In this document: one piece after another, positions 1,829 to 57,983 of the stretch
Position numbering within the stretch: position 1 is the first letter of the stretch
How the letters are laid out: each line of letters opens with the position of its first letter
Assembly (NCBI GenBank): GCA_934102355.1
Contig: CAKOSO010000001.1
Location: forward strand, 229,620-293,619
Source of the DNA: an uncultured Bacilli bacterium
GTDB taxonomy: Bacteria; Bacillota_I; Bacilli_A; RF39; UBA660
DNA: 64,000 bases
Direction of reading: 5' to 3'
Made by a program: the position numbers and the translations under genes
The notes under the pieces: model-generated
Told to the model about the DNA's origin: nothing
Database searches by the model: none
Seen by the model: only the letters and a program-made list of their open reading frames with translations

Positions 1829-1922
1829 TTTCTCCTTATATTTTTAGTATATACAAAGTATTTTTTTTAATGTATTGATATATTTTATTTTTAAAAGTAT
1901 AATTTAGAATAGAGGTGTTAAT

Positions 1923-2741: not shown

Positions 2742-2759
2742 AAGTGCGAAAAGCTCTTT

Positions 2760-3614: not shown

Positions 3615-3638
3615 ATAAAAATCCTCCCTTCAAAATAA

Positions 3639-3888
3639 TTACCAATTTTTACCAATTTATATTTTTAAAACAATTCAAATAATTTTTTCCTACATAATCT
3701 CACTCACCTTTCATATTAATTATTTTAAAAAAAAGGAAGAAATACCTGCTGGAAAAAATTACCAATTTAAACAATAAATAACAAATCAACTAATTTCCAT
3801 TTTTTACCAATTAAAAATATAATCAAATAAAAAATTTCCAAGTTTTACCAAAAATATAATTAAAATAAACTGGAAAATTTTACCAATT
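3639..3888. repeat. cluster of six TTACCAA(T/A)T motif copies
   Basis: Copies at 3639-3647, 3649-3657, 3759-3767, 3804-3812, 3845-3853 and 3880-3888. The first two are phased 10 bp apart. A longer unit CTGGAAAA(A/T)(A/T)TTACCAATT occurs twice. Confidence 0.7.
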
Positions 3889-8311: not shown

Positions 8312-8337
8312 AAAAAAGCGTCTTATTAAACGCCTTT
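8312..8337 (-). terminator. terminator at the 3' end of the T4SS-like operon
   Basis: GCGTCTT...AAACGC hairpin abutting the stop codon at 8337, with an A6 run (T-run on minus). Confidence 0.45.
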
Positions 8338-22484: not shown

Positions 22485-22872
22485 TCGTACCGCCCTTAAT
22501 ATTATTATCAATAGGAACTGATACTACTTTTGTTTCTTCATCCTTTTTAGCAACAATACTTGTTGAAACATTTAATAACTCTTTTAATTTAACTAAATCT
22601 TTATATCCATAAACTATTATACTAGCAATAAATAATGTCTTAACAGCTTCCGCAAGATTCATACTTATCCCAGCAACATCAGCAACTATAATATCCGGAT
22701 TTAAAACTCCACATAAATACATAAGTCCAATACCTGTAACAATACAAAGCGACTTAAACATGCCTGCAAAAAGTCGCTTTAAACAAAACTCACATTTAAA
22801 CGTAGATATTGTAACTCCTAAAAAAGTGTTAGAAAGCATTACACACAAAAGGCCAATTACTATATTTTTCAT
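22471..22872 (-). CDS. small 3-TM protein, possible TcdE/UviB-type (phage_holin_4_1) holin
   Basis: 133 aa with 3 predicted TM helices and a charged C-terminus. Weak resemblance to TcdE-family holins. Directly upstream of a PG hydrolase gene. Confidence 0.35.
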   Translation of the reverse strand: MKNIVIGLLCVMLSNTFLGVTISTFKCEFCLKRLFAGMFKSLCIVTGIGLMYLCGVLNPDIIVADVAGISMNLAEAVKTLFIASIIVYGYKDLVKLKELLNVSTSIVAKKDEETKVVSVPIDNNIKGGTNEVQ

Positions 22873-27195: not shown

Positions 27196-29322
27196 TTATT
27201 CATCAAAGAAATCATCAAAGAATTCATCTTCAGTAATCTTAATTTTCTTAGAATTATTAAAGATATTTGATACATCATCTTTTGCTTCATCAACAATTGA
27301 TTTTAATTCTGTTTTTTCAGTATTTTCAACTTCTTTAATTTCTTTTTCTTTTTCAAGTTTTTCCTTTTCTAATTTTTCTCTTTCTTCTTCCTCTTTTTCA
27401 AGTTCAGCAATCTTCTCATCAATTCTCTTAACTAGTTCATCTACATCAAAATCATTATCATTAGATCCACCAATTAATTTATCTATATCGTTTGAATTAT
27501 TATTAAATGGTAATGGATTAACAGGAGCTTGTGCAAAAGGATTTATTCCAGAACTTAATCCAGCAAAAGGATTATTATCCATTTGATTCATCATGCTATC
27601 TTGCTTTTTACTTTGAACAAAAGCCTTTAAATCAAATGTAGCAATTGGTTTTTTCTCGCGTTGAACAAATGGATCTGCTTCTGTCTTATTAATACCCCAA
27701 TCAGTTTTCCAGTTAGGATAAAGTTTTGTTTTATATGGACGACATCTAGTTTTAATAACAATTGCTTCGTTTTCTTTCATAAGTTGTAATTCTGAAACAG
27801 AAATTAAAGGCCTTGTTTCTTCATGTTCCTTATCGCCTTTACCAACTTTCACCTTTTTCTCACCACATAACTTTGAAATTTCTTCCAAAGCAGAAAGTTC
27901 AGTAGTAAGTAGATATAATAAATTATTACAGTTACTACGTATTGTTTGTGCAATCTCTTTAGAATAAGTAGCTTCAAGACCAGCAAAGTTTTGAATAATC
28001 ATTGTAAGTCTTATATGTCTTGATCTTGCAGCTGCAACCATTGTAGTAACATCTTTTAACGGAGGCATATTTTGGAACTCATCAAGTATAAAATTAGTTC
28101 TTATAGGTAATGCTCCATTTTGAGTATGTTGAGCAACATCAATCAAAGATTCATAACATTGTTTAATAAAAATAGTAGCTAGAGCATGATATGTTTTCTT
28201 TTCATCTTGTATAATCATAAATACTGCTGTTTTTTCTTTACCAATCATGTCCATATCAAAGTCACTAGTAGAAAGCATCTCAGATAAATTTTCACGAGAA
28301 GCAAAAATTCTTATCTTTTGTTTAAATGTAGAAAGTATTGAACCCTTTGTTTCTTCTGGAGCATAAACAGTACCACTAGCACATGTATAAGCAGCACTAG
28401 CAGGATTCTTTCCATTAAAGTATTCTTTTATATATGAACTTCTTGGTCCAAATCTTTCTTCACCAACTGATGCCATTACTGAAATACTATTAATATTTAC
28501 TTCCTCTTCTTTAGCATCCTCAAAAAGGCCTAAAGTAAGACCAGCGAAAAAATCAGCTGAAGTCTTTTCCCAGAAAGCATCTTTATTTCCGCCCTCTTCA
28601 TACAAGATATTAGAAGCAACGTCATCCAAAAGCTCCATTGCTTTATCAACATTACCACTTTTATATAACTTATAAGGTAAAGCTAAAGGATTCCAAGAAT
28701 TTCCTCTTTGGGGTTCACGGAAGTTTAATACAACAATCTTATAACCTCTTTCTTTTAATAATCCAGCACTTTCTTTGTATATTTCACCTTTTGGATCGGT
28801 GATAATCATTGATTCACCTTTTTTAATTAAAATCTTAACAAGTGGATGTACAACATCTTGCGTCTTACCAGCACCAGTAGATCCAATAACTAAGTTATGT
28901 GATTCACCATTATCAAGCCATATTTTTTTACCATCATTTATAAGTGGAAAACCAGCAACATTATAATATGGTTCTTTAATATCTACACAATCAAGTTTTT
29001 GTTTCATTTCTTTAGTTGTAGCAAATCTAGAATAACCACCTTTATCAGTTTCACCAAAACTTATTCCAAATCCCTTTTCTTTATCATAAAAATGAGAAGA
29101 AACACTAACAAATAAAAATATTAATACAACAAAATAAAATACAAGTACCATAGATATATATTTAGGACCAAATCCTATAAATGGATTAAGTCCAGCAAAA
29201 CTACCAGTAGTAGCAAAAGTATTAATATTAACAACTAAAATTGATACAGCAAAAAGTAAAACAACCGCAAATATTGCAAAAATAAACCAATCTTTTGGTG
29301 TAGCCTTCAACTTAAACTTCAT
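27196..29322 (-). CDS. VirD4/TraG-type type IV coupling protein (T4CP) ATPase
   Basis: 708 aa. 2 N-terminal TM helices, Walker A VIGSTGAGKTQ, Walker B FILDEF, and an RSRHIRLTMIIQNFAGLEATYSKE tail motif typical of the TraG/VirD4 family. Low-complexity E/K-rich C-terminus. Confidence 0.7.
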   Translation of the reverse strand: MKFKLKATPKDWFIFAIFAVVLLFAVSILVVNINTFATTGSFAGLNPFIGFGPKYISMVLVFYFVVLIFLFVSVSSHFYDKEKGFGISFGETDKGGYSRFATTKEMKQKLDCVDIKEPYYNVAGFPLINDGKKIWLDNGESHNLVIGSTGAGKTQDVVHPLVKILIKKGESMIITDPKGEIYKESAGLLKERGYKIVVLNFREPQRGNSWNPLALPYKLYKSGNVDKAMELLDDVASNILYEEGGNKDAFWEKTSADFFAGLTLGLFEDAKEEEVNINSISVMASVGEERFGPRSSYIKEYFNGKNPASAAYTCASGTVYAPEETKGSILSTFKQKIRIFASRENLSEMLSTSDFDMDMIGKEKTAVFMIIQDEKKTYHALATIFIKQCYESLIDVAQHTQNGALPIRTNFILDEFQNMPPLKDVTTMVAAARSRHIRLTMIIQNFAGLEATYSKEIAQTIRSNCNNLLYLLTTELSALEEISKLCGEKKVKVGKGDKEHEETRPLISVSELQLMKENEAIVIKTRCRPYKTKLYPNWKTDWGINKTEADPFVQREKKPIATFDLKAFVQSKKQDSMMNQMDNNPFAGLSSGINPFAQAPVNPLPFNNNSNDIDKLIGGSNDNDFDVDELVKRIDEKIAELEKEEEEREKLEKEKLEKEKEIKEVENTEKTELKSIVDEAKDDVSNIFNNSKKIKITEDEFFDDFFDE

Positions 29323-39210: not shown

Positions 39211-39873
39211 TTATTTTTCCACCATATTAGCATAATATTTTTTCAAGAAATCATCTGCATAATACCTATCATATAGTTGTCCTACAAAAGTTTTAGGTGG
39301 ATAACCCCTACGCCTAAAATCTTGTCTAATAAGTGCCGTCCAAGAAATAAACATGTCAAGTGATAAGAATACTAAAAATCCAACATATAACACCTTACGT
39401 AAGTCTGGTTGCATGCGTTCAACAAGTAAAGAAACTTTAGGATATATAAACTTCATAAGTCCAACACAAGCAAGTCCCCAGAAAAACATAATTGGAAGAG
39501 TTGTCCTACCATTTATATTAAGAGGTAAATTACTATAATCCCATGAAGTAGTCCCAACAAACACTTCTTGTAGCAAACTAACTAAATACTCAAAAGATCC
39601 TCCTATTATAGAGCCCTTCAAAAAAATTTTATACCAAGATTGATCTGTATGAGATAATAAATAAACCATTAGCACCGCACCTGCGCCATATATTATATTA
39701 AAAGGTCCATATATTACTCCTCTATGAACATTAAAACTAAAAACACCAGTATCGCCAAGATTTCTAAACCCTTCTAATAAATCTTCATAAATTGCTCCAA
39801 TAACACTACCAATAACAAACAAAAACAAATATTTTTCTCTTACTAAAGATTTTACTTTAACCATTTCTACCAC
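39211..39873 (-). CDS. polytopic membrane protein, PF06541-like (putative ABC-transporter type IV family)
   Basis: 220 aa. FVIGSVIGAIYEDLLEG...GVIYGPFNIIYGAGAV signature, shared with the 47512 gene. Confidence 0.45.
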   Translation of the reverse strand: MVEMVKVKSLVREKYLFLFVIGSVIGAIYEDLLEGFRNLGDTGVFSFNVHRGVIYGPFNIIYGAGAVLMVYLLSHTDQSWYKIFLKGSIIGGSFEYLVSLLQEVFVGTTSWDYSNLPLNINGRTTLPIMFFWGLACVGLMKFIYPKVSLLVERMQPDLRKVLYVGFLVFLSLDMFISWTALIRQDFRRRGYPPKTFVGQLYDRYYADDFLKKYYANMVEK

Positions 39874-44850: not shown

Positions 44851-47442
44851 CTATTTTAAAATATCATCTATCTTACGCAATTCATCATCTATTTCTAATA
44901 ATGATATTTGATGAGGCTTTTCTATTATTTCTGGTTTTTTAACCTCTTCAGTAACTACTTTTTCTTCCTTTGCTGTTACTGTTTTTTCATCTAAAACTTC
45001 TTTATCATCTTTTTTATCTTCTTTATCATTAATAACAGAACCATCAGTTAAACCAACTTTTAAGAATATTGATACAACATCCTTTTTAGAAATAGTCATT
45101 CCTGTTTTATATCTATCTGAAATTGATATCTCCGTATTTTTAATATAATCAATATCAGAAGAAGTCTTAATTCCAAAATAAGAATTATTCTTAGTTAAGA
45201 TAACATTTATTATTTCATACGGATTAGTCTTAACATCCCTTAATAACAATAAACCACGTTTAGCTCTAGATTGCTTTTCAAATTCTTGAATCTTAACCCT
45301 TTTAGCAGTATTCTTATTTGTAAAAATAGTAACATACTCTATATCATTATCAAAATTATTAACTGCTACTACTTCATCACCCTTTAAATTAATAGATTTT
45401 ACCCCAGATGATTTTATACCTGATTCTGGTATATCTGACTGATCAAACCATAAACCATAACACTTATTAGTAGCTATGAATATATTATCATAATTATTTA
45501 TAAATGCTCCAACTACTTCATCACCATCTTTTAATTTCATACAAGATATTGGTTTTGAATAACGACTAACTTTAAAATCACTAACTTTAGTCTTTTTAAT
45601 CATTCCACCCTTAGATGCAATAATTATTGATCTATCAACATTAAAATCATTTATAGGTATTGCAGCAACTATCTTCTCATCTTCACCTATTTTAATTATA
45701 TTACTTATATGTTTTCCAAGTTGTTTCCATTTAATATCAGGTATTTCATAAACAGGTAAATACAAATAATTACCAAGATTAGTAAATATTAACATTGTAT
45801 CAATAGTATTTTGTTTAAACAATCCAAGTAAATAGTCATTTTCTTTTATAACAGGTTCTTCATTATTAGCAAGATATGCCCTTTTACTAGTTCTTTTTAC
45901 ATATCCATCTTTTGTTATTAAAGTAACAACATCTTCTCTTGGTATCATTTCTTCAGTATCAATTTTAATCTCTGCATCCATATCAAATATAGCAGTTTTT
46001 CTTGGAACATCATAATCTTTCTTGATATTTTTAAGTTCATCTTTCATTGTCTTATGAAGTTCATCTTCATCATTTAATATCTTATTTAACTGAGCAATAA
46101 TAAACTCTAGATTCTTTAACTCTTCTTGAAGTAAAGTAACATCAGTATTAGTTAAACGATATAATTGTAAAGTAACAATTGCATCTGCCTGTTCCATAGT
46201 AAATTGATACTCTTTAACTAAATTTTCCTTAGCATCACTCTTATTTTTACTTCTTCTAATTGTTTTTATAACATCATCCAATATTGATATAGCTTTAATT
46301 AATCCTTCAACTATATGATATCTAGATGAAGCATGTGCCAAATCAAACTGAGTTCTTTTTATAATTATTTCTTTATAATGTGCAATATAAGCGTCAATTA
46401 TTTCAATCAAAGATAAAAGTTTAGGTCTTCTATTTACTATCGCAACCATATTATAATTATATGCTGATTGTAATTCTGTATTTTTATATAAATAATTTAA
46501 TATTAAATCTTCCTTTGCTTCTTTCTTTAATTCAACTACTATTCTTAATCCTTCTTTATCAGATTCATCCCTTACTTCAATAATTCCATCTATCTTTTTA
46601 TCTATTCTTATTTCATCTATTTTTTTAACAATATTTGTTTTTAATACATCAAAAGGAATTTCAGTAACTACTATTAAAGTTTTATTCTTTTCTTTTACAA
46701 TTTCAACTTTAGAACGAACAACTACTTTACCCTTTCCAGTAGTAAGAGCATTTCTTATGTCTTGATGATTTAACGCAATACCACCAGTAGGAAAATCAGG
46801 ACCTTTTACAATGTCCAAAATAGTATCAAGATGACAATTTGGAGAATCAATTCTTTTAATTGTTGCATCTATTATTTCTCCTAAATTATGAGGAGGTATA
46901 TTAGTAGCATAACCAGCACTAATTCCAGTAGTACCATTAACTAAAAGATTAGGAAACTTAGCAGGTAAAACTGTCGGTTCCCAAATACTATCATCAAAAT
47001 TTAAAGCAAATTTTACAGTATCTTTATCTATTTCTTTTAATAATTCATTAGATATTTTAGAAAGTCTAGCTTCAGTATAACGATATGCAGCTGGACTATC
47101 ACCATCTATTGAACCATTATTACCATGCATATCTATAAGAGGATTTTTCATCTTCCATTCTTGAGACATACGAACCATCGCATCATATATTGATGTATCT
47201 CCATGTGGATGGAAAGAACCAATTACATCCCCTACTGTCTTAGCGCTCTTACGATAAGGTTTATCACAAGTATTATGGCCAATATACATTGCATACAAAA
47301 TTCTTCTTTGAACAGGTTTCAATCCATCCCTAACATCAGGAATAGCACGATCTTGAATAATATATTTTGAATATTTTCCAAACCTTTCACCCATGATTTC
47401 TTCCAATGAATAGTTGCTAATTTTTTCTAATATGTCTTTCAT
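44851..47442 (-). CDS. parC: type IIA topoisomerase subunit A (ParC-like; GyrA not excluded)
   Basis: 863 aa. Active-site region RAIPDVRDGLKPVQRR and catalytic Tyr context. No gyrB adjacent. Confidence 0.7.
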   Translation of the reverse strand: MKDILEKISNYSLEEIMGERFGKYSKYIIQDRAIPDVRDGLKPVQRRILYAMYIGHNTCDKPYRKSAKTVGDVIGSFHPHGDTSIYDAMVRMSQEWKMKNPLIDMHGNNGSIDGDSPAAYRYTEARLSKISNELLKEIDKDTVKFALNFDDSIWEPTVLPAKFPNLLVNGTTGISAGYATNIPPHNLGEIIDATIKRIDSPNCHLDTILDIVKGPDFPTGGIALNHQDIRNALTTGKGKVVVRSKVEIVKEKNKTLIVVTEIPFDVLKTNIVKKIDEIRIDKKIDGIIEVRDESDKEGLRIVVELKKEAKEDLILNYLYKNTELQSAYNYNMVAIVNRRPKLLSLIEIIDAYIAHYKEIIIKRTQFDLAHASSRYHIVEGLIKAISILDDVIKTIRRSKNKSDAKENLVKEYQFTMEQADAIVTLQLYRLTNTDVTLLQEELKNLEFIIAQLNKILNDEDELHKTMKDELKNIKKDYDVPRKTAIFDMDAEIKIDTEEMIPREDVVTLITKDGYVKRTSKRAYLANNEEPVIKENDYLLGLFKQNTIDTMLIFTNLGNYLYLPVYEIPDIKWKQLGKHISNIIKIGEDEKIVAAIPINDFNVDRSIIIASKGGMIKKTKVSDFKVSRYSKPISCMKLKDGDEVVGAFINNYDNIFIATNKCYGLWFDQSDIPESGIKSSGVKSINLKGDEVVAVNNFDNDIEYVTIFTNKNTAKRVKIQEFEKQSRAKRGLLLLRDVKTNPYEIINVILTKNNSYFGIKTSSDIDYIKNTEISISDRYKTGMTISKKDVVSIFLKVGLTDGSVINDKEDKKDDKEVLDEKTVTAKEEKVVTEEVKKPEIIEKPHQISLLEIDDELRKIDDILK

Positions 47443-47511
47443 ATCATCACCACTTCAATTATATAATATTTCTAATTATTTTTCTATTTCAAATGACAAA
47501 TAATGTAAAGT

Positions 47512-48186
47512 TTACTTATCTCTAAATTTACTAAATTTATTTTTAATATTAGGGAAAGAATTCATAAGTCTGTTAATAGAAGGTTTCTTAAATATTGACT
47601 TAATCTTATCCTTTATTTCACCAGTATTATCCTTAACCAATTTACTTAGTTTATTTTTAAAACTAAAAATTATTTTTGATGAAACAATTAAATCAGTAAG
47701 AAAAATAACTGCCAAAACTCCTGCAATAATATATTTCACATTAGGAGATAAAAGATTAACAATACGAGATATAAAAGGATGAACTAAATATATAACTATT
47801 ACTCCACCAAGCCCAAAAGGAACAAGTGTCTCTAAACATATTCTCCCATTGATATTATATTTTCTTTTTGAATAATCCCACCATCTAGCATTAAATATTT
47901 TTTCCAAAATATAACTTGTAAAATATTCAAGAATTGAACAAATTATTAATGACATAAAAAATAAAACTAGTGGACTATCAGCATATCTTCCAAGAAGAAT
48001 AACTATAAAAACACAACCAAAACCATAAATAGGACAATAAGGTCCAATAAAAAATCCTCTATTACACCATTTACCAGTACCAATATAAATATATATAGTT
48101 TCAACAATCCATCCTAAAATAGAATAGAACATAAAATACAAAAAGTATTGAACAACAAGATTTAATATATCCATAAGTTTAATCAC
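47512..48186 (-). CDS. polytopic membrane protein, PF06541-like (paralog of 39211-39873)
   Basis: YSILGWIVETIY...GFFIGPYCPIYGFGCVF signature. Confidence 0.45.
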   Translation of the reverse strand: MIKLMDILNLVVQYFLYFMFYSILGWIVETIYIYIGTGKWCNRGFFIGPYCPIYGFGCVFIVILLGRYADSPLVLFFMSLIICSILEYFTSYILEKIFNARWWDYSKRKYNINGRICLETLVPFGLGGVIVIYLVHPFISRIVNLLSPNVKYIIAGVLAVIFLTDLIVSSKIIFSFKNKLSKLVKDNTGEIKDKIKSIFKKPSINRLMNSFPNIKNKFSKFRDK

Positions 48187-48259
48187 CTTAGTACATTATA
48201 TCATAATTATTTTTAAACTTTCAAAAAAGTTTACAACAAAAAAGTTTCAAAAATGAAAC

Positions 48260-49258
48260 TTAATTTATAGTTGTATTAGTCCTATCATTTATAACAGATG
48301 TAGTTTTTTTATTACAATCTTTTAATACATGAATAAAGCCCAGGAACTTTAATCCCTTCTTCTTTCCAGCAATCATATCTGAATAAAACTTAGTAGATTC
48401 AGTATGCGTACAACATTTATGAGCTGATGTATTACAGCCTGCTTTTGGATATCTATCAGTATTACATTCAAATATTGTGAGATTTCCTTTTCCGTCATTT
48501 GCTTCAACTACTTGAATATGTCCATATGAAGAGCCAGAAAACATATATACAATTAATGTTCCAGGTGTTATTTTACTAATATCACTATCCATTACAAAAC
48601 CATTTTCACCCAAATTAGCGTTATTATAATAATAATCTTTAGCATGCCCAGCTATAGAATCAAATTTTTTCCAAGCAGTTGGATCTGCAGAAGGTAAAAA
48701 GCTTTTAAAATAAGCATAAACTCCCTCAGCACATTGACCATTAGAAAGCTTTTTAGCAGTATACTTTCCTCCACATATCTTACTAGTGTATGTACCAGAT
48801 CCAGTTCCACCACTAGAACCTCCAGAACCACCAGAGCTACCAGATCCACCTGAACCACCATTACTATTACTTTGGTTTTTCTTTGCCTCTTCTTGTTTCT
48901 TTTTTTCCTCTTCAGCTTGATATTTATTAATATTTTCAATAGTAGCATTTTCTAAACAATCAGTGAAATTTTCACTTTCACCCATATTACCAATAGTAAT
49001 CATTAAAGTATTCACAATAGTAGGAACAAAGAAAATAAGTAAAGAATAAATAACTCTTTTAATAAGAAGTTTTACTGCTTTGTTCTTTTCTTTATCATCA
49101 GATGCAATTACTGCTTTAAATAAATCAATCATAGCAAGTACTACTAAGATTATTGGAACAGCAATTTTAATTATAATCACAATTATTTTTAAAAAATAAA
49201 TTACTTTTAAAATACTTGAATTAGTACAAACAGACATAAAACTCATAAATCTCACCAC
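48260..49258 (-). CDS. fusion of the small 2-TM pilin-like module (paralog 3), a Gly/Ser linker and a CHAP-domain peptidoglycan amidase/peptidase
   Basis: N-terminal IKIAVPIILVVLAMIDLFKAV...KLLIKRVIYSLLIFFVPTIVNTLM matches the 14641 and 15079 genes. Followed by (GGS)n-like low complexity, then a CHAP domain with Cys (GQCAEGVY) and His (GHIQVV) catalytic contexts. Confidence 0.65.
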   Translation of the reverse strand: MVRFMSFMSVCTNSSILKVIYFLKIIVIIIKIAVPIILVVLAMIDLFKAVIASDDKEKNKAVKLLIKRVIYSLLIFFVPTIVNTLMITIGNMGESENFTDCLENATIENINKYQAEEEKKKQEEAKKNQSNSNGGSGGSGSSGGSGGSSGGTGSGTYTSKICGGKYTAKKLSNGQCAEGVYAYFKSFLPSADPTAWKKFDSIAGHAKDYYYNNANLGENGFVMDSDISKITPGTLIVYMFSGSSYGHIQVVEANDGKGNLTIFECNTDRYPKAGCNTSAHKCCTHTESTKFYSDMIAGKKKGLKFLGFIHVLKDCNKKTTSVINDRTNTTIN

Positions 49259-49363
49259 TTTATGTTAAATCTAAAATTATTATACCCTAAAATTTAAAAA
49301 CTATCAATAACATAAAAGTATATAAACACTTAAAATGCCAATAATATAATATGAGGTGATATT

Positions 49364-50815
49364 TTGATAAATAGTAATATTAAAATAAATGAAAACATAA
49401 TAAAAGAAAACTATAATAACGCACCAGATATAACTTTAAGATATCTAGAAGAACAAAAAGAAAAAATAACTATAGTTTTTAATCAAAGTTTATGCAGTAC
49501 AAGTTCCATAAATGAATCTATTTTAAGAAATATAACCCTTCTTACAAATAAAAAAACCTTTTTTAAAAAAGATTTATACACTCTTCTTAAAAAAACATTA
49601 GCAGCAAATAACGTCAAAGAAGTAAATACATATAAAGAAATATATTCAAAATTAAGTAATGGTTTTACTATAATTTTATTTGATAAAAAAGATAAGGCCC
49701 TAGCTGTAGAAACAAAACAGGACTTATCAAGAGCTATATCAGAGCCTCTAACTGAACAAACAATAAGTGGACCAAAGGATGCGTTTAATGAAAACTACAT
49801 GACAAATATTGGATTAGTAAGAAAAAGAATAAAAACTGATAATTTAAAAATTAAAGAAAAAATACTCGGTAGAGAATCAAAAACAAAAGTAAGTATTATG
49901 TATATGGATAACATAATAGAAAAAAACTTATTAGATGAATTAAATAAAAAGCTAGAAAGCATAGACATCGATGGAATTATTGACAGTACTTACATAAAAG
50001 AACTAATTTTAAAAAAAGATAGCATATTTCCGCTTCTTGAAACAACCGAAAGACCTGATCACGCAACAATGAGTTTACTAGAAGGAAGAATCCTAATATT
50101 TGTTGAAAATAGTCCCTACGCTATAATAATTCCTACCTTCTTTTTTGATTTTTTTCATGCCCCAGAAGATAATTATCAAAATTATAAAAACGTCACATTT
50201 ACAAGACTTATAAGATTTTTTGCATTCTTTATTGCAACTCAGTTACCGGCCATATATGTTGCAGTAACAACATATAATCAAGAAGCTATACCAACAACTC
50301 TTATTACCAATTTTGCAGCTCAAAGAGCAGGAGTACCTTTTCCAGCCATAGTTGAAGCACTAGGAATGATCTTAATATTTGAAGTACTAAGAGAAAGTGA
50401 TATTAGAATGCCAAACTTTTCCGGTTCAGCAATATCTATATTAGGAGCAATCGTACTAGGAGATGCTGCAGTATCAGCTGGAATAGTTTCACCTATAATG
50501 TTAATAATGATAGCTACAAGTGCAATATGTTCATTAATGTATTCAAATGTAGGAATGATTAATGCCATAAGAATATGGAGAATAATATTTATGATATTTG
50601 CAACATTTTTTGGAATACCAGGAGTATTCCTAGCAGACTTTATCTTCATAATAAACCTATGCGAATTAAAATCCCTTGGTAAACCATATCTCTACCCTAT
50701 AACACCATTTAGTTTCAAATTCTTAAAAAGAAACGTTGGAAAATCAAGTATAAGAAAAGACAACGAAAGATCCCCTATTCTTACTGATAAAAATTACAAA
50801 AGGAGCAACTTATGA
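49364..50815 (+). CDS. gerA: spore germination protein GerA-family A subunit
   Basis: 483 aa. GerA N-domain plus C-terminal membrane region. TTG start with a GAGGTGA RBS. Confidence 0.75.
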   Translation: MINSNIKINENIIKENYNNAPDITLRYLEEQKEKITIVFNQSLCSTSSINESILRNITLLTNKKTFFKKDLYTLLKKTLAANNVKEVNTYKEIYSKLSNGFTIILFDKKDKALAVETKQDLSRAISEPLTEQTISGPKDAFNENYMTNIGLVRKRIKTDNLKIKEKILGRESKTKVSIMYMDNIIEKNLLDELNKKLESIDIDGIIDSTYIKELILKKDSIFPLLETTERPDHATMSLLEGRILIFVENSPYAIIIPTFFFDFFHAPEDNYQNYKNVTFTRLIRFFAFFIATQLPAIYVAVTTYNQEAIPTTLITNFAAQRAGVPFPAIVEALGMILIFEVLRESDIRMPNFSGSAISILGAIVLGDAAVSAGIVSPIMLIMIATSAICSLMYSNVGMINAIRIWRIIFMIFATFFGIPGVFLADFIFIINLCELKSLGKPYLYPITPFSFKFLKRNVGKSSIRKDNERSPILTDKNYKRSNL

Positions 50816-51954
50816 AAATAAAAAAATTACTTTTAATATTAATAATTTTGACTACTTTATTTTTTATGAGTGGTTGCAGTTATCAAGAATTAAACGATTT
50901 AGCAATTGCATCTGCAATAGGAATAGATTATGAAAACAACGAATTTATAGTAACTTCACAAATATTAAACTTCCAAAAAAATGAAGAATCATCTGAAGAA
51001 AACGTAATACTATATGAAGGAAAAGGAGAAACAATCGGAGAAGCAATAAGAAATACTTATCTACAATACCCAAATAAACTCCACATGGGTCATCTTGAAT
51101 TAATAGTATTAAACAAAAATGCTGCTAATGAAAAACTAACAGAAATAATTGATTACTTCATAAGAAGTCCAGAAGCAAGAAGTAATTGTTATTTTATGAT
51201 TTCAACAGAAGGTAGTGCAAAAGATATACTTACTCCATCAGAAGAATCAGAAGATACATTTACAGCAAATAAAATAGTAAAAATAGTAGAAGATACTAAA
51301 AAATATCAAGGAACAACAACATTAATGACATTGGACCAGGTATCAATGGCATTCCTATCAAAAGGAATATACCCAGTAATTACCTCTTTAAAATATGAAA
51401 AAGACGAAGAAAAATATAGCAATGTAATATCAACGGGTTTAGTAGTATTAAAAGAAAACAATAAAATTACAGATGAATTAACAAAAGAAGAAGCAACAGC
51501 ATATAACATCATAAATAAAAATTTCACTGATGTAATGCTTAGTTTTGAATATCAAGATAACAATTTAAACGTAATAATATTTAATCCAAGTTCAAAAATA
51601 GATGTAAGAATAAAAGAAAACAAACTAAAAGTTAGCATTAACTTAACACTAGAAGGACATATTTCAGTAATAAATAAAAAGATTAATTTACAAAAAAAAG
51701 AAAATATAAAAGATATTGAACACAAAACAGAAGAAGAAGTAAAAAAATATATTGACCACTTAATAAATTTTAATAAAGAAAATAATATTGATACACTAAA
51801 TATTAAAAATAAAATATATAAAAATTATTATAAAAAATACAAAGAATATGAAAATAAAAATATATATGAAATTGCAGAAATAAACACAAATATTACTGTT
51901 AATCTATATAGATATGGTAATACTTATAAAAGTATAGGTGATAAAAATGAATAA
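50812..51954 (+). CDS. gerC: spore germination protein Ger(x)C lipoprotein
   Basis: Lipobox MSGC. GerAC-family size, and position between the A and B subunits. Confidence 0.7.
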   Translation: MKIKKLLLILIILTTLFFMSGCSYQELNDLAIASAIGIDYENNEFIVTSQILNFQKNEESSEENVILYEGKGETIGEAIRNTYLQYPNKLHMGHLELIVLNKNAANEKLTEIIDYFIRSPEARSNCYFMISTEGSAKDILTPSEESEDTFTANKIVKIVEDTKKYQGTTTLMTLDQVSMAFLSKGIYPVITSLKYEKDEEKYSNVISTGLVVLKENNKITDELTKEEATAYNIINKNFTDVMLSFEYQDNNLNVIIFNPSSKIDVRIKENKLKVSINLTLEGHISVINKKINLQKKENIKDIEHKTEEEVKKYIDHLINFNKENNIDTLNIKNKIYKNYYKKYKEYENKNIYEIAEINTNITVNLYRYGNTYKSIGDKNE

Positions 51955-53041
51955 AATAGATACCAAAGAAATTCTTGCTATTACATTCTTTACATGTACA
52001 GCACTATATCCAGGATTTGGAATAAATTCAGTGCTAAACACCGGAAATACAACATCATTAATTACACTTATAGTGGCTTTTATAATTGGAATAATTCCGA
52101 TGTTTGCAATTACTTATTTAAATAAAAAAATGAAAGATAAAAATATATTTGAATACAACAAAGAAAAATTTAAAATGTTCGGAACAATTATTAACATAAT
52201 ATTGGTTCTAATAGGAATATACATACTATTTATAAACTCATGGACATTTTGTAATTTTGTAATAAGTCAATTTTTAACAAGAAATTCATACTATGTGTTA
52301 GCAACAACATACTTTCTCATTGTTTCATATTTAGTCACTAAAAATATAAATGTAATTTGTAAAACATCAACTGTATTATTAGTTTTCTTCTTTTTAATAA
52401 TAATTCCCGTATTCGGAATATTATTTACAAAAATCGATATAACAAATATAAAACCACTTTTTACTATATCTTCATCATCCTTTATAGGAACTGTTGTAAA
52501 AGTTTTAGCATTCACATCAACTCCAATTATTACGCTATTAGCTATTAAACCATCAGATTTAGATGATCAAAAAAAATTCAAAAAATTCATCATAATCGGT
52601 TATGTTTTAGCAGGAATAATACTTTTTATATATACATTTCTAATCATAACAACATATGGAATTGAATTTTCAAAAATTCTTGACTACCCAGGATACTATT
52701 TATATAAACAAGTAAAAGCATTAAATTTCATAGATAGAATTGAAAACTTTATCGTAATAGTATTTTTTGATTCCACATTTATAAACTTAACAATGACAAC
52801 ATTCTTTATAAATGAATTTATAAATACAGTATTTAAGATAAAAAAAGAGAATAAAAAAATAATTATAACTTACACATTTCCACTTGTTATATCATTGATA
52901 AGCATTTATGTTTTCAAACATTTTTACACATACAAAATACTTGCCATATTTCCAATAATTGCAACAATTGCCATAATAATAATTATCATATTAGCACTAC
53001 TTTCCAAAATAAAAAGAGATAGCAAAAATACTACCTCTTAA
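51938..53041 (+). CDS. gerB: spore germination protein Ger(x)B (APC-type permease)
   Basis: 367 aa, ~10 TM helices. Third gene of the gerA-C-B operon. Confidence 0.7.
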   Translation: MIKMNKIDTKEILAITFFTCTALYPGFGINSVLNTGNTTSLITLIVAFIIGIIPMFAITYLNKKMKDKNIFEYNKEKFKMFGTIINIILVLIGIYILFINSWTFCNFVISQFLTRNSYYVLATTYFLIVSYLVTKNINVICKTSTVLLVFFFLIIIPVFGILFTKIDITNIKPLFTISSSSFIGTVVKVLAFTSTPIITLLAIKPSDLDDQKKFKKFIIIGYVLAGIILFIYTFLIITTYGIEFSKILDYPGYYLYKQVKALNFIDRIENFIVIVFFDSTFINLTMTTFFINEFINTVFKIKKENKKIIITYTFPLVISLISIYVFKHFYTYKILAIFPIIATIAIIIIIILALLSKIKRDSKNTTS

Positions 53042-53044
53042 AAA

Positions 53045-55195
53045 CTATTTCTTCTTCTTTAACTTGCCCGAATAAACAAGATAAATCATTGATAAAATAC
53101 AAACTATTACGGAAATAATAAATATTGTACAAATAATTGCTATTGTATCTCCAGTAGGAGGATTATCACTATTAACAAGTTTATAATGATAATTTATTAC
53201 AATATTTTCACTAGATGCTGTTCCACTAGCACTTCCTTCAATTCTAAAAACTTTATACCCAATAGAAATAAGTCTATTAAGTGGTGATGTATTATATTCA
53301 TTCCCTACAAAAGTATTTATTGTTTCAGTTTCTACTTTATCGCCAGTACTATCTTTATAATAATGATTTACTGTAACTACTGCTTCTTTAGCAACATCAA
53401 AATCAACTGTAGATGATGCTAAGGAAGTTTTCTTTTCACCAGTTTGAGGTAATTCTAAAACTCCATTAGCAGAAACAGTCATAGATTTAATATTACTTAC
53501 ATCAGCATCTTCCTTTAATTTCACTGAAATATTTTTAGTATAATAAATATCAAAAGAACCACCATTTAAATTATTTATATTATTTAAACTAACATTCCAA
53601 GTAATTGTGTTATTAACACTATCATAATTTCCAGCATCAGCATTAGTACATGTAACATAAGATGGGAGTTGAACAACTATTTTGTAACCAACATCTCCAT
53701 AATATGATGATATTGATGACTTATAATCTATCGCATAATTTATTATTTGCTCTTTACTTGAAACCACTTTAGTATCAGTACTAATTTCTAAAACCGGATC
53801 AACAATAGTTGAATTATTAAGAGTATAATAATAATCAACATAAATTATTCCATTTGCATATACTCCCTTAGCATTGCTTGGAGAGGATTTTAGAGTATAT
53901 TTAGGTTCAAGATCTTTACTAGTTGTAGAATAATTAGTACCAATTAATCCACTCAACATATTATCAGAAGATACTTTCACAGAAGTAGCTTGATTCTTAA
54001 CTTTATCCCATAAATAATGACGAACAATGACACGCGAATCATCAAAATTAGTAATAAAATTCCACTTTACATCACCAGATAAACTTTGATATTCGTTACC
54101 CATTTTAGAATCGAGAGCTAATGTAACCTTTATCTTTTTACTACTACCAGATGGAACAGTAGCAAGTAAAATATCATTTACCATGTAAGAACCTTCTTCT
54201 TCATTCCAAACAGGTCCATTATACAAAACATTATTATCCTGATCCTTAACAGTAATAATTGCATATTCTTTTAATAACTTATTAACTTTTTCATCACTAC
54301 TATTAATAGGTTCTGCTCTTAAATAGAAAGTCTGACCATCTGTATCAGCATAATTATTATTTAAAGTAATTGTTTGATTTATAGTCATTCCAGGTTGTAA
54401 ATTTTTAAAGTTTTTAAATACACCAACATCAGATGGATCAACATCAAATCCAGAAGTAGAAGAATTAAATGTTACACTAACATCATCATAACTTTTTTCA
54501 TCATCTAAAGTAGTATTATTATATATATTAGATATCTGATCATCAGATAAACCCCATATAGATTTAGCAGCACCACTTGTTGCTTGAATCATTTCAACAT
54601 CAAATTTAACATCAATAGAATTAGAACCAAAAATAGAAGAAATTCCAGAATTAATTTCTATTTCATCAATTAAATTATCAGTAACTTCTCCTGGTTCCAA
54701 CACTTTCATATAATAAAAATATAAACTTAAATTTGGATTAGTAATATTTGGTCTTGCAGAAGTAATATTACCATTCTTATCATAAACTATATAATACCAA
54801 TTATTAATACCATTTGTCTTACTCCAAAGTTGCTTAGTATTACTACTTTTATCAACAACATTAAGTTTAATTCCAAGTGAAGAAACACCTTCAGGTGAAG
54901 TAATTTCACCAGATGAATTTCTTATTCCAAGAAGTCTAATTACTTTTACTCTTACTAAAGCATTAGTAGAACCAGTATTCTTAACTGCAATAGTTTTATC
55001 TATTTTACTTCCAGGATAAACATCACCATCAACTTTCCCACCAGTTTCTATAAGTTCTCCACTTAATGTCCCTGTTGAAATAGTATTTGTAAAACTACTA
55101 CCAACAGATTGAAGAGCATAACTTATTCCTAGATAAAGAGAAAAAACAAATAATGCTATACCAACAATAATATAATATACTTTCTTTCCTTTCAT
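53045..55195 (-). CDS. cell-wall-anchored surface protein with a sortase-B-type NPPTG sorting signal
   Basis: 716 aa. N-terminal signal peptide. C-terminus NPPTGD + hydrophobic helix + KKKK. The N-proximal SFTNTISTGTLSGEL weakly resembles SipW-cognate/TasA-camelysin leaders. Confidence 0.55.
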   Translation of the reverse strand: MKGKKVYYIIVGIALFVFSLYLGISYALQSVGSSFTNTISTGTLSGELIETGGKVDGDVYPGSKIDKTIAVKNTGSTNALVRVKVIRLLGIRNSSGEITSPEGVSSLGIKLNVVDKSSNTKQLWSKTNGINNWYYIVYDKNGNITSARPNITNPNLSLYFYYMKVLEPGEVTDNLIDEIEINSGISSIFGSNSIDVKFDVEMIQATSGAAKSIWGLSDDQISNIYNNTTLDDEKSYDDVSVTFNSSTSGFDVDPSDVGVFKNFKNLQPGMTINQTITLNNNYADTDGQTFYLRAEPINSSDEKVNKLLKEYAIITVKDQDNNVLYNGPVWNEEEGSYMVNDILLATVPSGSSKKIKVTLALDSKMGNEYQSLSGDVKWNFITNFDDSRVIVRHYLWDKVKNQATSVKVSSDNMLSGLIGTNYSTTSKDLEPKYTLKSSPSNAKGVYANGIIYVDYYYTLNNSTIVDPVLEISTDTKVVSSKEQIINYAIDYKSSISSYYGDVGYKIVVQLPSYVTCTNADAGNYDSVNNTITWNVSLNNINNLNGGSFDIYYTKNISVKLKEDADVSNIKSMTVSANGVLELPQTGEKKTSLASSTVDFDVAKEAVVTVNHYYKDSTGDKVETETINTFVGNEYNTSPLNRLISIGYKVFRIEGSASGTASSENIVINYHYKLVNSDNPPTGDTIAIICTIFIISVIVCILSMIYLVYSGKLKKKK

Positions 55196-55204
55196 AAAAA
55201 CCTC

Positions 55205-55876
55205 CTAATCAAGCTTTTTAAACGCATCAGAAGAAGAACTATATCCACCAGTTGAAACAACATCAACCTTAACTTCAATAGTAAAGCCTTTTATATCATC
55301 ATAATAAACCATATCAGAAGGAATAACAACATTAGTAAATAATGTAACCTTATCTCCTGCTTTTATTACTCCATCATTTCCAATATAAATAAATACAAAT
55401 TCACCATTATTACTATTACCATCTAACATAAATTCATCTTTATTATAAAAGCTATATAACTTATTAGAATTAACTAAGTAAAGTAACTCTTTTTCAGTAT
55501 AACTACTATTAACATTAATATTATAACTATCACTCTTATAAGCTTTATCATAATAAATAACATTTTTTATTTTATTTAAAGTCTTATCATCAGTTATAAG
55601 TTTACCATTTTTATCATAAAAACTAACTTTTAATCTAAAATAAGAATTTCCTTTCATAGCAATAATATTAGGATCATAAAAATACGTTTTTCCAGGTTTA
55701 ACATCAATCGAAGTTTCTCTATAAGGTTCAATATAAGTAACTAAAACATCCCCTATTATTCTTATATTTCTAGGTTCATTAACTTTTAAAAAACCATATA
55801 TACAAAAAATAACTGCTACAAAAGATACAACTAGTAAACAAATTGCAATCTTCTGTTTACTTTTTTTCTTTTTCAT
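55205..55876 (-). CDS. small signal-anchored secreted protein (possible accessory/minor subunit of the 53045 protein)
   Basis: 223 aa. N-terminal KKKKSKQK + TM helix. Immediately upstream and co-oriented. Confidence 0.4.
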   Translation of the reverse strand: MKKKKSKQKIAICLLVVSFVAVIFCIYGFLKVNEPRNIRIIGDVLVTYIEPYRETSIDVKPGKTYFYDPNIIAMKGNSYFRLKVSFYDKNGKLITDDKTLNKIKNVIYYDKAYKSDSYNINVNSSYTEKELLYLVNSNKLYSFYNKDEFMLDGNSNNGEFVFIYIGNDGVIKAGDKVTLFTNVVIPSDMVYYDDIKGFTIEVKVDVVSTGGYSSSSDAFKKLD

Positions 55877-55989
55877 AAACCATCACCTATTCTTTATAAT
55901 TACAAAAATATTATAACATACCAAATCGCAAAAAAAAATAACTTTTACATAAATTAAAAAAGTAATATAATTTATACAGGTGTATAAAT

Positions 55990-56886
55990 ATGACTGAAAA
56001 TATATATAAAAACTGTACATTATGTCCAAGAAACTGTAAAATCAACAGATACAAACGAAAAGGATTTTGTAATTCAAAAAATAAAATAAGAATAGCATAT
56101 GCAGATATGTATAAATATGAAGAACCAATTATAGAAAGTAAAAATAAGAAATCTGGAGCTATATTTTTTTCTGGATGCAATATGAAATGTATATTCTGTC
56201 AAAATTATGACATAAGTACATTAAATATAGGAAAAGAAATTTCTATAAAAAAGTTAAAAAATATCATGCTAAAACTACAAGAAAAAAATGCTTTAAATAT
56301 AAACCTTGTAACTCCTACCATATATGTTCCAAGTATTAAAAAAGCTATAAAAAAAGCCAAAAAAGAAGGATTAAAGATTCCAATAATATATAATACTTCA
56401 AGTTATGAAAACATAGAAACTATAGAAATGTTAAATAATGATATTGATATTTACTTACCTGATTTAAAATATTATGAAGATAATCTATCACAAAAATATT
56501 CAAATACAAAAGACTACTTTTATCACGCCACTAAAGCAATTGATGAAATGTATAAACAAGTTGGAAAACCAATAATTAAAAATAATATAATGGAAAAAGG
56601 AGTTATAGTAAGACATCTTCTATTACCAAGTCATTTAGAAGACTCAAAAAAAATAATAAAATACTTATATGATACATATAAAGACAATATCTACATCAGT
56701 ATAATGAATCAATATACTCCAATAAAAAAATTAAAATATGAAAATTTAAATAGAACAGTATCAAAAAAAGAATATGATGAATTAATTGATTATGCTATAG
56801 AATTAGGCATTAAAAATGCCTTTATTCAAGTAGGTGAAACACAAAAAAAGAGTTTTATTCCTGATTTTAAAATTCAGAAATTTTAG
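55990..56886 (+). CDS. radical SAM protein, PflA/PflX-type activating-enzyme family
   Basis: CTLCPRNC...GFC N-terminal cluster plus the second motif SGCNMKCIFCQNYD. Confidence 0.6.
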   Translation: MTENIYKNCTLCPRNCKINRYKRKGFCNSKNKIRIAYADMYKYEEPIIESKNKKSGAIFFSGCNMKCIFCQNYDISTLNIGKEISIKKLKNIMLKLQEKNALNINLVTPTIYVPSIKKAIKKAKKEGLKIPIIYNTSSYENIETIEMLNNDIDIYLPDLKYYEDNLSQKYSNTKDYFYHATKAIDEMYKQVGKPIIKNNIMEKGVIVRHLLLPSHLEDSKKIIKYLYDTYKDNIYISIMNQYTPIKKLKYENLNRTVSKKEYDELIDYAIELGIKNAFIQVGETQKKSFIPDFKIQKF

Positions 56887-57802
56887 CTCTTTTTTTATAT
56901 TCAATCAAATTATTAACAAGTCTATTTATTAAAAACTTAATCTCATCATTTATACTATCACGTTCTTCTTTTGTAATATTATAATTATTTTTTTTATTTT
57001 CAAGTATACAAGAATCATCAGCAAGTAATGACAATTCAGAAAATAAATCACTTTCTCCTTCATACTCATATATAAAATCAGCAGTATTTCCATTAATTTC
57101 ACAACAATCAAGTTTTTCTTTTAAACCTAATCTATCTTTTAAACATAGTGCAATACTTTTAGTATTTTGATAATCAAATGTTTCATAATTATCTCCAAGA
57201 ATAAGTTTTAAAATTTCTTGTTCATCATAACTATTAATTCCTTCTTCTATACCAACATTAACATAACTAGTTAAATTTAAGGTTATTTCATTTTGATTAA
57301 CAATCTTATAAAATCTCTTTTCTAATCCAGTCCTTTTTATAATAACATCATCCTTTAAAACAAATTCATTTTTATAACTCTTTATAAGTTTACAAAGCTG
57401 TGAAGTTAAAGAAGCAAGGCCTCTTGCAGAATCAAGATTATATGTATGAGATAAAATTATATATCTTCTAACACCATCAATAACATAACTATTTAAAATA
57501 TCATCATAATTAACTTTAGGTCTAGATAAATATATGCCACTTACATAATTTAAATCTTCCTTTATCAAAAATGTTGATTCATCTATATCAATTAAGTTAA
57601 GCCTTTTTATAACCATACCAATAGTACTATATGAATCACACATAATAATTTCACAATCAAGTAAAGCACTTTTAATAATATCCCATGAAAAATATCCATA
57701 ATATTTAGTCATACTTGGAAGTATTTTTCCTAAAGCTCTAGTAAGCTTATCATTATAATCATATTTATTCTTAAGTTCACATAAAAATGAATCTATGATC
57801 AT
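56867..57802 (-). CDS. hypothetical protein
   Basis: 311-aa ORF with no recognisable motif. Confidence 0.4.
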   Translation of the reverse strand: MIIDSFLCELKNKYDYNDKLTRALGKILPSMTKYYGYFSWDIIKSALLDCEIIMCDSYSTIGMVIKRLNLIDIDESTFLIKEDLNYVSGIYLSRPKVNYDDILNSYVIDGVRRYIILSHTYNLDSARGLASLTSQLCKLIKSYKNEFVLKDDVIIKRTGLEKRFYKIVNQNEITLNLTSYVNVGIEEGINSYDEQEILKLILGDNYETFDYQNTKSIALCLKDRLGLKEKLDCCEINGNTADFIYEYEGESDLFSELSLLADDSCILENKKNNYNITKEERDSINDEIKFLINRLVNNLIEYKKRAKISEF

Positions 57803-57857
57803 AAGCTCACCTCTTAGATAGTTATTATAACATAAAGCAATATATTTAAAAGAGTTT

Positions 57858-57921
57858 TTTAAAAAAAGAGATCAAATTCCAATTGATCTCTAATCTATAT
57901 AAACGTAAGTTAAAACTTACG
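57858..57921 (-). terminator. two tandem hairpins downstream of the dinD-like gene
   Basis: AGAGATCAA-attccaa-TTGATCTCT (57867-57891) flanked by T6/A7, plus CGTAAGTT..AACTTACG (57904-57921). Confidence 0.5.
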
Positions 57922-57983
57922 ATACACAATATATATTATGGTTAAAACTTAAAAATAGTTACACCTTTTTAACTAATATTAAA

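Follow-up and report, generated by a model that had tools for sequence, protein, structure and literature searches.

Membrane-anchored hydrolases carrying a CHAP domain are established parts of Gram-positive type IV secretion systems (T4SS), as in the case of PrgK and of TraG from pIP501 (PMC12102498). PrgK (pCF10), TraG (pIP501) and VirB1-89K (S. suis) are presumed to open the wall locally for the VirB4/VirB6/VirD4 machine (PMC12102498); they are encoded within the transfer operon, their anchor is a single transmembrane (TM) segment with no relation to pilins, and CHAP is usually paired in them with an SLT glycosidase or LytM domain. Here we describe a gene whose product likewise consists of an N-terminal membrane anchor and a CHAP domain, but whose anchor is a paralogue of pilin-like proteins (hereafter the fusion gene and the fusion protein). 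The gene lies within a 64,000-nucleotide stretch (hereafter the window) of contig CAKOSO010000001.1, positions 229,620 to 293,619, from an uncultured Bacilli bacterium of the RF39 lineage. Unlike the genes of VirB1-like hydrolases, it is located outside the T4SS cluster, 19-38 kb from the T4SS genes, and CHAP is the sole enzyme module of its product, which has no glycosidase domain. While T4SS-associated membrane-anchored CHAP hydrolases are known, we found neither a pilin paralogue as their carrier nor the modular family to which it belongs described in the literature searched.

Gram-positive T4SS have been described as pilus-less, with Patescibacteria as the sole exception (PMC12857230, PMC10633639). 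A survey of Patescibacteria T4SS, which treats the Pfam family T4SS_pilin (PF18895), and a December 2025 review both present Gram-positive T4SS classes as devoid of VirB2-type pilins save in Patescibacteria, and Wang et al. 2023 (PMC10633639) agree that such pilins in monoderm T4SS are limited to this group. The pilin arrays of Patescibacteria (Ca. Southlakia epibionticum, TM7x) resemble those of the window in that they belong to PF18895 (through the window gene at 14641), comprise several divergent paralogues per genome, and are chromosomal with no relaxase seen. However, the host here is a sporulating member of the Bacillota, enzyme-fused pilins go unmentioned in the Patescibacteria papers, and VirD4 is present in the window while it was not recognized in Southlakia (PMC10633639). 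Nor did we find any description of VirB2-type pilins fused to enzymes in the literature searched. In modular type IV pilins, such as PilB and PilC of Streptococcus sanguinis, a functional domain is grafted onto the C terminus of the pilin and displayed on the filament, but these proteins belong to another filament superfamily: the fusion protein lacks both a class III signal peptide and a PilD site, and its hairpin of two helices is of the VirB2 type.

Results

The Fusion Protein Consists of a Pilin-Like Module and a CHAP Domain

From N to C terminus, the fusion protein displays a hydrophobic two-helix hairpin, an E/K-rich helix, a Gly/Ser linker, a CHAP domain, and a short N/T-rich tail. Its elements are listed below; residues are numbered according to the 325-residue form of the protein unless stated.

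48260-49237 (-): coding sequence of the pilin-module/CHAP fusion, 325 aa plus stop; a database protein (P0001) is 100% identical and starts at 49237
48947-49237 (-): pilin-like module, aa 1-97 (BLASTP, hidden Markov model (HMM), shuffles, hhalign, AlphaFold2 (AF2))
48875-48946 (-): E/K-rich helical spacer, aa 98-121, ATIENINKYQAEEEKKKQEEAKKN; AF2 helix at 103-126 (328-residue numbering)
48794-48874 (-): Gly/Ser-rich flexible linker, ~aa 122-149, 27 residues, SNSNGGSGGSGSSGGSGGSSGGTGSGT; AF2 predicted local distance difference test (pLDDT) ~30, no secondary structure
48308-48793 (-): CHAP domain, ~aa 149-310, a predicted peptidoglycan amidase/endopeptidase (Pfam, motifs, Foldseek)
48731-48733, 48518-48520, 48467-48469 and 48461-48463 (-): CHAP catalytic residues Cys169, His240, Glu257 and Asn259, respectively

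The first-pass annotation of this DNA, made from the letters alone, had placed the N terminus of the fusion protein in the same family as the products of two genes of the window's T4SS operon.

15079-15480 (-): pilin-like paralogue of 133 aa, stand-alone, part of the T4SS operon; 114.6 bits on the lineage HMM
14641-14988 (-): pilin-like paralogue of 115 aa, stand-alone; the VirB6-like gene follows directly downstream

This kinship holds by four measures of similarity. In BLASTP, the 15079 product aligns with the N-module over 106 aa at 40% identity (E=6e-21) and the 14641 product over 63 aa at 48% (E=1e-15). A lineage HMM, built solely from 30 stand-alone pilin-like open reading frames (ORFs) of other genomes, gives the fusion N terminus 87 bits (E=1.8e-26) and detects exactly three copies of the module in the window, the best unrelated protein being MscL with 17.5 bits, a level that arises from TM composition alone. 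When the sequence was shuffled, the maximum reached was 18.7 bits for full and 21.8 bits for segment-preserving shuffles (2000 of each), as against 90.2 bits for the real fusion N terminus. Finally, hhalign aligned 95 fusion N-modules with 30 stand-alone pilins over 99 columns with a probability of 99.8% (E=1.4e-29), and the similarity thus survives the profile-profile check that had been set beforehand to tell homology from mere TM composition bias.

On the curated PF18895 model, the fusion protein scores 18.2 bits, under the cut-off of 26.6, whereas the 14641 paralogue passes with 33.2 bits, alone among the three window copies; the membership of the fusion protein in PF18895 therefore rests on transitive homology. 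One fusion relative (P0008) passes the cut-off (27.0 bits), and 37 of the 150 top members of the family described below match PF18895 at E<=1e-3. The pilin modules also match, weakly, the N-terminal part (~positions 50-125) of the Mbov_0396/MMCAP2_0566 models and, among PHROGs, two families of unknown function (E ~1e-5).

The module exhibits a conserved Cys4, a first helix/TM segment (~aa 10-40) with an invariant Pro28, a basic loop, KAVIASDDKEKNKAVKLLIKR, containing seven Lys/Arg, and a second helix/TM segment (~aa 59-83) with an IFFVPT motif. It ends with a conserved Cys94 and the connector motif C-x3-AT-x-ENI. In the AF2 model of the fusion protein, which has a mean pLDDT of 64 (hairpin 76-85, linker ~30, CHAP 52-90), the two helices of the module span residues 10-48 and 51-86, that is, 39 and 36 residues. 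Foldseek returned no VirB2/TraA structural match for the hairpin in the PDB, a search that is uninformative for so simple a helical fold.

The sequence suggests that the module inserts with both termini outside and the basic loop in the cytoplasm. The N terminus is placed outside because stand-alone relatives in three loci (L017, L036, L040) have cleavable-looking signal peptides just ahead of the conserved first Cys, and because N-extended relatives have a signal peptide and an ectodomain of ~200-550 residues ahead of the module; with the loop of seven Lys/Arg in the cytoplasm, the C-terminal enzyme would then be extracytoplasmic. Cys4 and Cys94, which flank the hairpin, vary little or not at all among 150 family members; both are predicted to be extracytoplasmic. 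They might form a disulfide staple tying both ends of the pilin, in loose analogy with cyclized T-pilin.

As for the C-terminal module, the first-pass annotation had named a Gly/Ser linker and a CHAP domain with Cys/His catalytic contexts, and both are there. The domain passes the PF05257 cut-off of 26 bits with 35.3 (E=1.6e-8), over positions 7-81 of the 81-position profile, and its motifs NGQC169, YGH240IQVVE and FE257CN259 are intact and are kept in five relatives (P0002, P0003, P0007, P0160, P0161). Glu and Asn follow the catalytic His at +17 and +19, a spacing equal to that of the LysK CHAP. There are six more Cys in the CHAP region, as expected for an extracytoplasmic domain. In the AF2 model, residues 128-172 (328-residue numbering) are disordered. 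The top Foldseek match of the model in the PDB is the CHAP endolysin PlyPy (5udm; E=5e-3, probability 0.99, TM-score 0.23-0.32), followed by other papain-like proteases. Sequence matches of the CHAP domain in the PDB are weak, LytN and phage lysin CHAP domains being the best. Phage tail lysins and endolysins (PlyPy, LytN/LysK-type) share this catalytic domain but have no membrane hairpin and depend on a virion or a holin. A homology search with the CHAP domain alone recovered only two extra proteins, and no deep alignment is therefore possible.

The Fusion Gene Has Its Own Promoter and Is Remote from the T4SS Operon

The maximal ORF of the fusion gene (48260-49258, -) encodes 332 aa from a GTG at 49258, but this codon lies inside a sequence resembling a ribosome-binding site and the real start is therefore ATG 49246 or ATG 49237. 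The former is 4-5 nt past GGTGAG and would give 328 aa; the latter (325 aa) aligns with the N termini of four homologues (P0002, P0003, P0011, P0012) and is the likely start, with ATG 49246 also possible.

49279-49307 (-): sigma-A-type promoter TTGATA-17-TATAAT, 11/12 matches to the general sigma-A consensus
49251-49256 (-): GGTGAG, resembling a ribosome-binding site, upstream of the ATGs of the fusion gene

The CmpB gene downstream has a promoter of its own at 48195-48224 (also 11/12), and the fusion gene looks monocistronic. It is flanked by parC/CmpB on one side and gerA on the other, the gerA operon being transcribed divergently ~100 bp away. The window coordinates confirm that ~33 kb separate it from the operon, as first proposed: the distances are ~33 kb to both pilin genes, 38 kb to VirB4 and 19 kb to VirD4, with housekeeping genes (mutS, parC, rsmI, spoVA, and others) in between. 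In every orthologous locus (L001, L051-L053), the next gene downstream of the fusion gene is CmpB-like, and the window has two CmpB-like (PF06541) membrane protein paralogues, at 47512-48186 (-) and 39211-39873 (-).

The Module Heads a Large Family with Varied C-Terminal Enzymes

A word-seeded protein search with the fusion protein identified 12 relatives. In three of them (P0004-P0006), the module is >90% identical to that of the window fusion and is followed by an unrelated C-terminal domain; P0008 carries NlpC/P60, and P0009, P0011 and P0012 carry Peptidase_C39_2. A nucleotide-database scan for the module, counting one genome per species, gave 39 loci, all in metagenome-assembled genomes (MAGs) of uncultured gut bacteria labeled 'Bacilli', 'Tenericutes', Erysipelotrichales or Mollicutes (a few labels being inconsistent). 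Most of these loci encode stand-alone proteins of 108-148 aa, five encode N-extended forms and four C-terminal fusions, the last with NlpC/P60, M23 and, twice, C39-like domains.

Stand-alone or N-extended module genes are directly upstream of VirB6-like, VirB3-like and split VirB4 genes in nine loci. By contrast, no VirB4 or VirB6 gene was found within 10 kb at any of the fusion-gene loci examined, and the ~33-kb separation seen in the window is therefore the usual state of this subfamily. The P0009 fusion has a type IV coupling protein gene ~10 kb away. Immediately ahead of the VirB6-like gene, related operons encode an N-extended pilin (L021 7760-9685, L033 9056-10891, L037 8663-10231) with a signal peptide, a Cys-rich ectodomain of ~430-550 aa and a C-terminal pilin module; the window 14641 gene is closest to the C-terminal module of these proteins and lacks the ectodomain.

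An exhaustive HMMER search with the module profile retrieved 10,289 representative proteins at E<=1e-3, of which 6,158 at E<=1e-10. Among the best 150 representatives, a slice biased by a query profile built mostly from fusion members, the module is followed by 70 or more residues in 106, stands alone in 35 and is preceded by an extension in 9. The following Pfam domains were found on these 150 proteins.

GDSL lipase/acylhydrolase: 12
Peptidase_C39_2: 9
M23: 8
NlpC/P60: 4
CHAP: 4
S9: 4
M15_4: 3
VanY: 1
Glucosaminidase: 1
NAGPA: 1

Wall hydrolases are thus most of the identifiable C-modules on this anchor (C39-like 9, M23 8, NlpC/P60 4, CHAP 4, M15/VanY 4, glucosaminidase 1). Single-linkage clustering of the C-terminal tails merged 63 proteins, probably through the shared helical connector, and was not used. 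None of the 10 family clusters checked has a name in any source. Taken by the first-pass annotation as unusual in both architecture and dislocation, the fusion is so only in part: it goes undescribed in the literature searched, but C-extended forms are common in databases; and separation from VirB4 is typical of the fusion genes examined. The T4SS of the window is itself dispersed.

Two C39-like fusions (P0011 and P0014; L007 2682-6342, L048-L050 8104-11735) are part of a conserved five-gene operon. It also encodes a SipW-like signal peptidase, two secreted proteins of TasA/camelysin type and a membrane protein of 235 aa. Some 10 kb upstream of the operon is a TraX-family gene; the context is not obviously that of a T4SS.

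Two N-Terminal Variants and Two C-Terminal Domains Occur in All Combinations, and a Phage Gene Shares the CHAP Domain

A contig identical to window positions 46620-59237 (L001) comes from the same metagenome sample as another contig (L002), in which a fourth pilin-module gene (10001-10990) is found between the rpsL-tuf operon and leuS. The latter contig shares with the window 377 nt at 97.9% nucleotide identity (window 49230-48854) and nothing else. The C-terminal domain encoded by this fourth gene, which is also that of P0004-P0006 and which we call X, is ~185 aa long and unrelated to CHAP. It has no Pfam match, no sequence match in the PDB and no relatives among the top 150 family members, and its AF2 model (pLDDT 46) is unusable; a SleB-like identity, which we had guessed for it, is unsupported. 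Together, P0001-P0006 display two N-terminal variants and two C-terminal domains in all four possible combinations, a pattern suggestive of exchange at the linker, by recombination or gene conversion.

In another related contig (L051), homology to the window starts at 48736, at the catalytic Cys codon, and runs through CmpB into parC. Upstream of CmpB/parC, at 661-3888, this contig encodes the tape-measure protein of a phage (phrog_58, E=7e-32) and a 367-aa protein, the last 175 aa of which are 99% identical to the CHAP domain of an orthologous fusion (P0003). Either prophage recombination really took place within the gene, or the assembly is chimeric, joined at a CHAP domain common to the phage. 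In both cases, virtually this CHAP domain is in use by a phage of the population, which argues that the domain would cut the peptidoglycan type of the species itself. A phage or plasmid origin found no match by tblastn against phages and plasmids, nor in a scan of IMG/VR.

A Dispersed Chromosomal T4SS Surrounds the Fusion Gene

The window (26% G+C) is rich in sporulation, germination and core genes (spoVA, gerA, uvrC, mutS, parC, trmD, comEA/EC, ftsW/rodA-type), among which the T4SS genes are dispersed. The T4SS operon runs from 15993 down to 8337 and encodes, in this order, unk141, pilin 15079, pilin 14641, VirB6/TrbL-like, VirB3-like, the VirB4 N-domain and the VirB4 ATPase.

8337-14630 (-): T4SS core (VirB6/TrbL-like, VirB3-like, split VirB4)
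11190-14630 (-): VirB6/TrbL-like, 1146 aa
10848-11174 (-): VirB3-like protein with two TM segments
10121-10897 (-): VirB4 N-domain ORF, matching positions 90-277 of the Mbov_0397 VirB4 model
8337-10124 (-): VirB4 ATPase ORF, matching positions 298-891 of the Mbov_0397 VirB4 model
27196-29322 (-): VirD4-type coupling protein (CD1115 family, 310 bits vs. a cut-off of 250), between spoVA and trmD/rimM

The two VirB4 ORFs are adjacent with a slight overlap, and an identical split is seen in all related operon loci (L020-L037). VirB4 of the window is 68-72% identical to that of nine divergent MAG loci; such conservation suggests that the T4SS is maintained by vertical descent. The best NCBIfam matches come from a Mycoplasma integrative and conjugative element (ICE): Mbov_0397 for VirB4 (342 bits, below the curated cut-off) and the TM protein Mbov_0396/MMCAP2_0566 for the VirB6-like protein (also below cut-off). 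These Mycoplasma proteins are ICE-borne, however, whereas the window genes are dispersed among core genes with no integrase, relaxase or transposase domain in any ORF of >=100 aa of the 64-kb window. The only Rfam match in the window is a tRNA, with no regulatory RNA. The VirB6/TrbL-like protein has a long Cys-rich region between its N-terminal TM helices and its TrbL_4 core, and a long C-terminal tail that is Gly/Ala-rich and charged. A membrane-anchored thioredoxin/TraF-like gene (16107-16553, +) is divergent from the pilin operon. Two Bro-N domain proteins in housekeeping surroundings (2760-3614; 57984-58811, -) may be remnants of mobile elements.

Most Related Operons Have a Wall Hydrolase Gene after VirB4

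In seven of nine operon loci, an M23 or CHAP match is found at the position after VirB4. In one (L037 14921-16231), the gene immediately downstream of VirB4 encodes a 436-aa TM-anchored protein that ends in CHAP and whose middle part looks SpoIID-like by eye; in another (L033 15760-16953), the gene at the same position encodes a 397-aa TM-anchored M23 protein with an uncharacterized C-terminal region. In the window, there is no such classical TM-anchored hydrolase after VirB4. The operon CHAP of L037 has the fusion CHAP as its sole match in the window (27.7% identity over 141 aa, E=2e-8) and is the closest non-orthologous relative of the fusion CHAP among the loci fetched, far above any CHAP match in the PDB.

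We considered two other window genes as counterparts of these operon components and rejected both. An M23 gene (21627-22511, -) is not a relocated VirB1, as it shares only the generic M23 domain with the operon enzyme of L033. The C-terminal region of its product looks SH3b-like by eye, and a holin-like 133-aa membrane ORF (22471-22872, -) overlaps its start; from their sequences, the two look like a lysis cassette rather than a T4SS hydrolase. Similarly, unk230 (7475-8167) has no similarity to the lipoprotein encoded after VirB1 in L037.

Discussion

The explanation that we tentatively prefer, derived from sequence, is that the fusion protein is an extracytoplasmic CHAP hydrolase, anchored by a pilin paralogue, that acts together with the chromosomal T4SS and, in the role of VirB1, cuts the wall of its own cell. 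The 97-residue hairpin would insert with both ends outside and the basic loop in the cytoplasm and, as a pilin paralogue, would join the membrane pool and the VirB6/VirB4-dependent handling site of the stand-alone pilins. The E/K helix and Gly/Ser linker (~50 residues) would give the CHAP domain its reach into the wall, where Cys169/His240 would cut the peptide stems or the cross-bridges of the peptidoglycan type that the species itself has. Cleavage would open a local gap where the machine or the pilus crosses the wall, as proposed for VirB1, PrgK and TraG. We favor this role because TM-anchored CHAP enzymes have a precedent in Gram-positive T4SS and because the operon hydrolase is missing here.

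Several observations weigh against this explanation. There is no direct T4SS link: the gene is monocistronic in appearance, has its own promoter, lies 19-38 kb from the T4SS genes and, by eye, has no upstream motif in common with the dispersed T4SS genes. The score of the fusion protein on PF18895 is below the cut-off, and pilus formation by any PF18895 member is only predicted, even in Patescibacteria (PMC10633639). GDSL, S9 and esterase modules on the same anchor are not obviously hole-making, and some C39-like fusions are in the TasA/SipW-like operon, with no T4SS context. In addition, relatives with an intact operon already have a VirB1-like enzyme, so that the fusions may be additional rather than equivalent to it. 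The equivalence to VirB1/CwlT/TcpG/PrgK put forward by the first-pass annotation therefore stands in part. It gains from the lack of a hydrolase after VirB4 in the window and from the kinship with the CHAP domain of L037, but loses from the separate classical hydrolase of related genomes, from the GDSL and S9 modules, and from the occurrence of at least two fusions with different C-terminal domains in one sample.

The strongest rival, which we regard as somewhat unlikely, is that the fusion protein is polymerized as a minor subunit of a VirB2-type filament, the enzyme on its linker cutting the wall of a contacted cell, be it a conspecific mating partner or a prey/host, with the C-modules as a toolkit against foreign envelopes. 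This would account for one conserved module and connector (C-x3-AT-x-ENI) carrying many unrelated enzymes, including those of lipase/esterase type, for the coexistence in one sample of at least two fusions with near-identical 5' ends and unrelated C-terminal domains, and for the existence of all four combinations of N and C types. It also fits with the classical VirB1-like enzymes already present in related operons, with the same CHAP domain on a phage tail protein, which acts from outside, and with modeled helices that, at 39 and 36 residues, appear pilin-like and longer than simple TM anchors. Pilins of the F/T type expose both termini at the pilus surface, and peptides can be displayed at the C terminus of F-pilin. 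However, polymerization is not known for any VirB2-type pilin that carries a folded C-terminal domain of ~230 residues, pilus formation by the module family is only predicted, and the hairpin has no VirB2/TraA match in Foldseek. A broader form of this idea, which we consider doubtful, is that the C-extended proteins are modular VirB2-type pilins with which the relaxase-less T4SS of gut Bacilli builds an enzyme-armed pilus against contacted bacteria. The equally doubtful armament would consist of interchangeable wall- and lipid-degrading enzymes (CHAP, NlpC/P60, M23, M15, C39-like, GDSL, S9).

Less probable again is a T4SS-independent autolysin, in which the hairpin would be a generic anchor with both termini outside and the enzyme would serve wall turnover, cell separation or the processing of surface proteins. 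The sigma-A-like promoter and housekeeping neighborhood of the fusion gene would suit such a role, as would the lack of adjoining VirB4/VirB6 genes at the fusion loci examined and the fact that the operon of P0011 and P0014 also encodes a SipW-like peptidase and TasA/camelysin-like proteins. But the module is conserved far past the needs of an anchor (invariant Pro, Cys pair, connector motif, 87-122 bits on the HMM), all taxa in which we found it belong to the lineage with this conserved T4SS, and a coupling protein gene is ~10 kb from the P0009 fusion.

We think it improbable that the fusion is a polymorphic antibacterial toxin, with the N-module as a trafficking domain and the C-terminal enzymes as toxins with cognate immunity proteins. 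The constant N terminus, variable C termini and cassette-like recombination boundaries recall such toxins, and the wall- and lipid-degrading repertoire resembles effector sets of type VI and type VII secretion systems and of the Xanthomonas T4SS. Yet there is no conserved small downstream gene, the next gene being CmpB in the window and L001, a convergent leuS in L002, and rimP in L003, and the module is an integral membrane hairpin rather than a soluble secretion signal. A gene of 231-235 aa follows P0008, P0011 and P0014; the L008 and L007 translations, compared by eye only, have no obvious similarity. A sporulation/germination wall enzyme or prophage lysin remnant, suggested by the divergent gerA ~100 bp away and by the related strain (L051) with phage tail genes fused to the same CHAP domain at the locus, is most improbable given the near-consensus sigma-A promoter, which is not of a sporulation sigma type, a family widespread in MAGs labeled Tenericutes/Mollicutes, the lack of matches in phage, plasmid and IMG/VR collections, and an N-module that is a T4SS pilin paralogue.

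Of greater importance, perhaps, is the surrounding system: a dispersed chromosomal T4SS of a spore-former that bears pilins and apparently lacks a relaxase. In Gram-positive T4SS, the wall-opening enzymes described so far are operon-encoded, single-TM, multidomain proteins, while here the carrier is a pilin-like paralogue. If the fusions work with the T4SS as we prefer to think, this may account for the passage of a pilin-bearing machine through a thick wall with no operon-encoded VirB1. The alternative of greater interest is that the pilus would be an enzyme-display device for attacking neighboring cells; if true, such an armed pilus would serve for attack, feeding or mating upon contact and would be a counterpart of the pilin-bearing T4SS that is essential to epibiotic Patescibacteria, but in Bacillota, a phylum for which reviews admit no T4SS pilins. 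Either way, Cys169, the Cys4/Cys94 pair and the connector motif provide testable handles on a conserved T4SS of abundant uncultured gut Bacilli.

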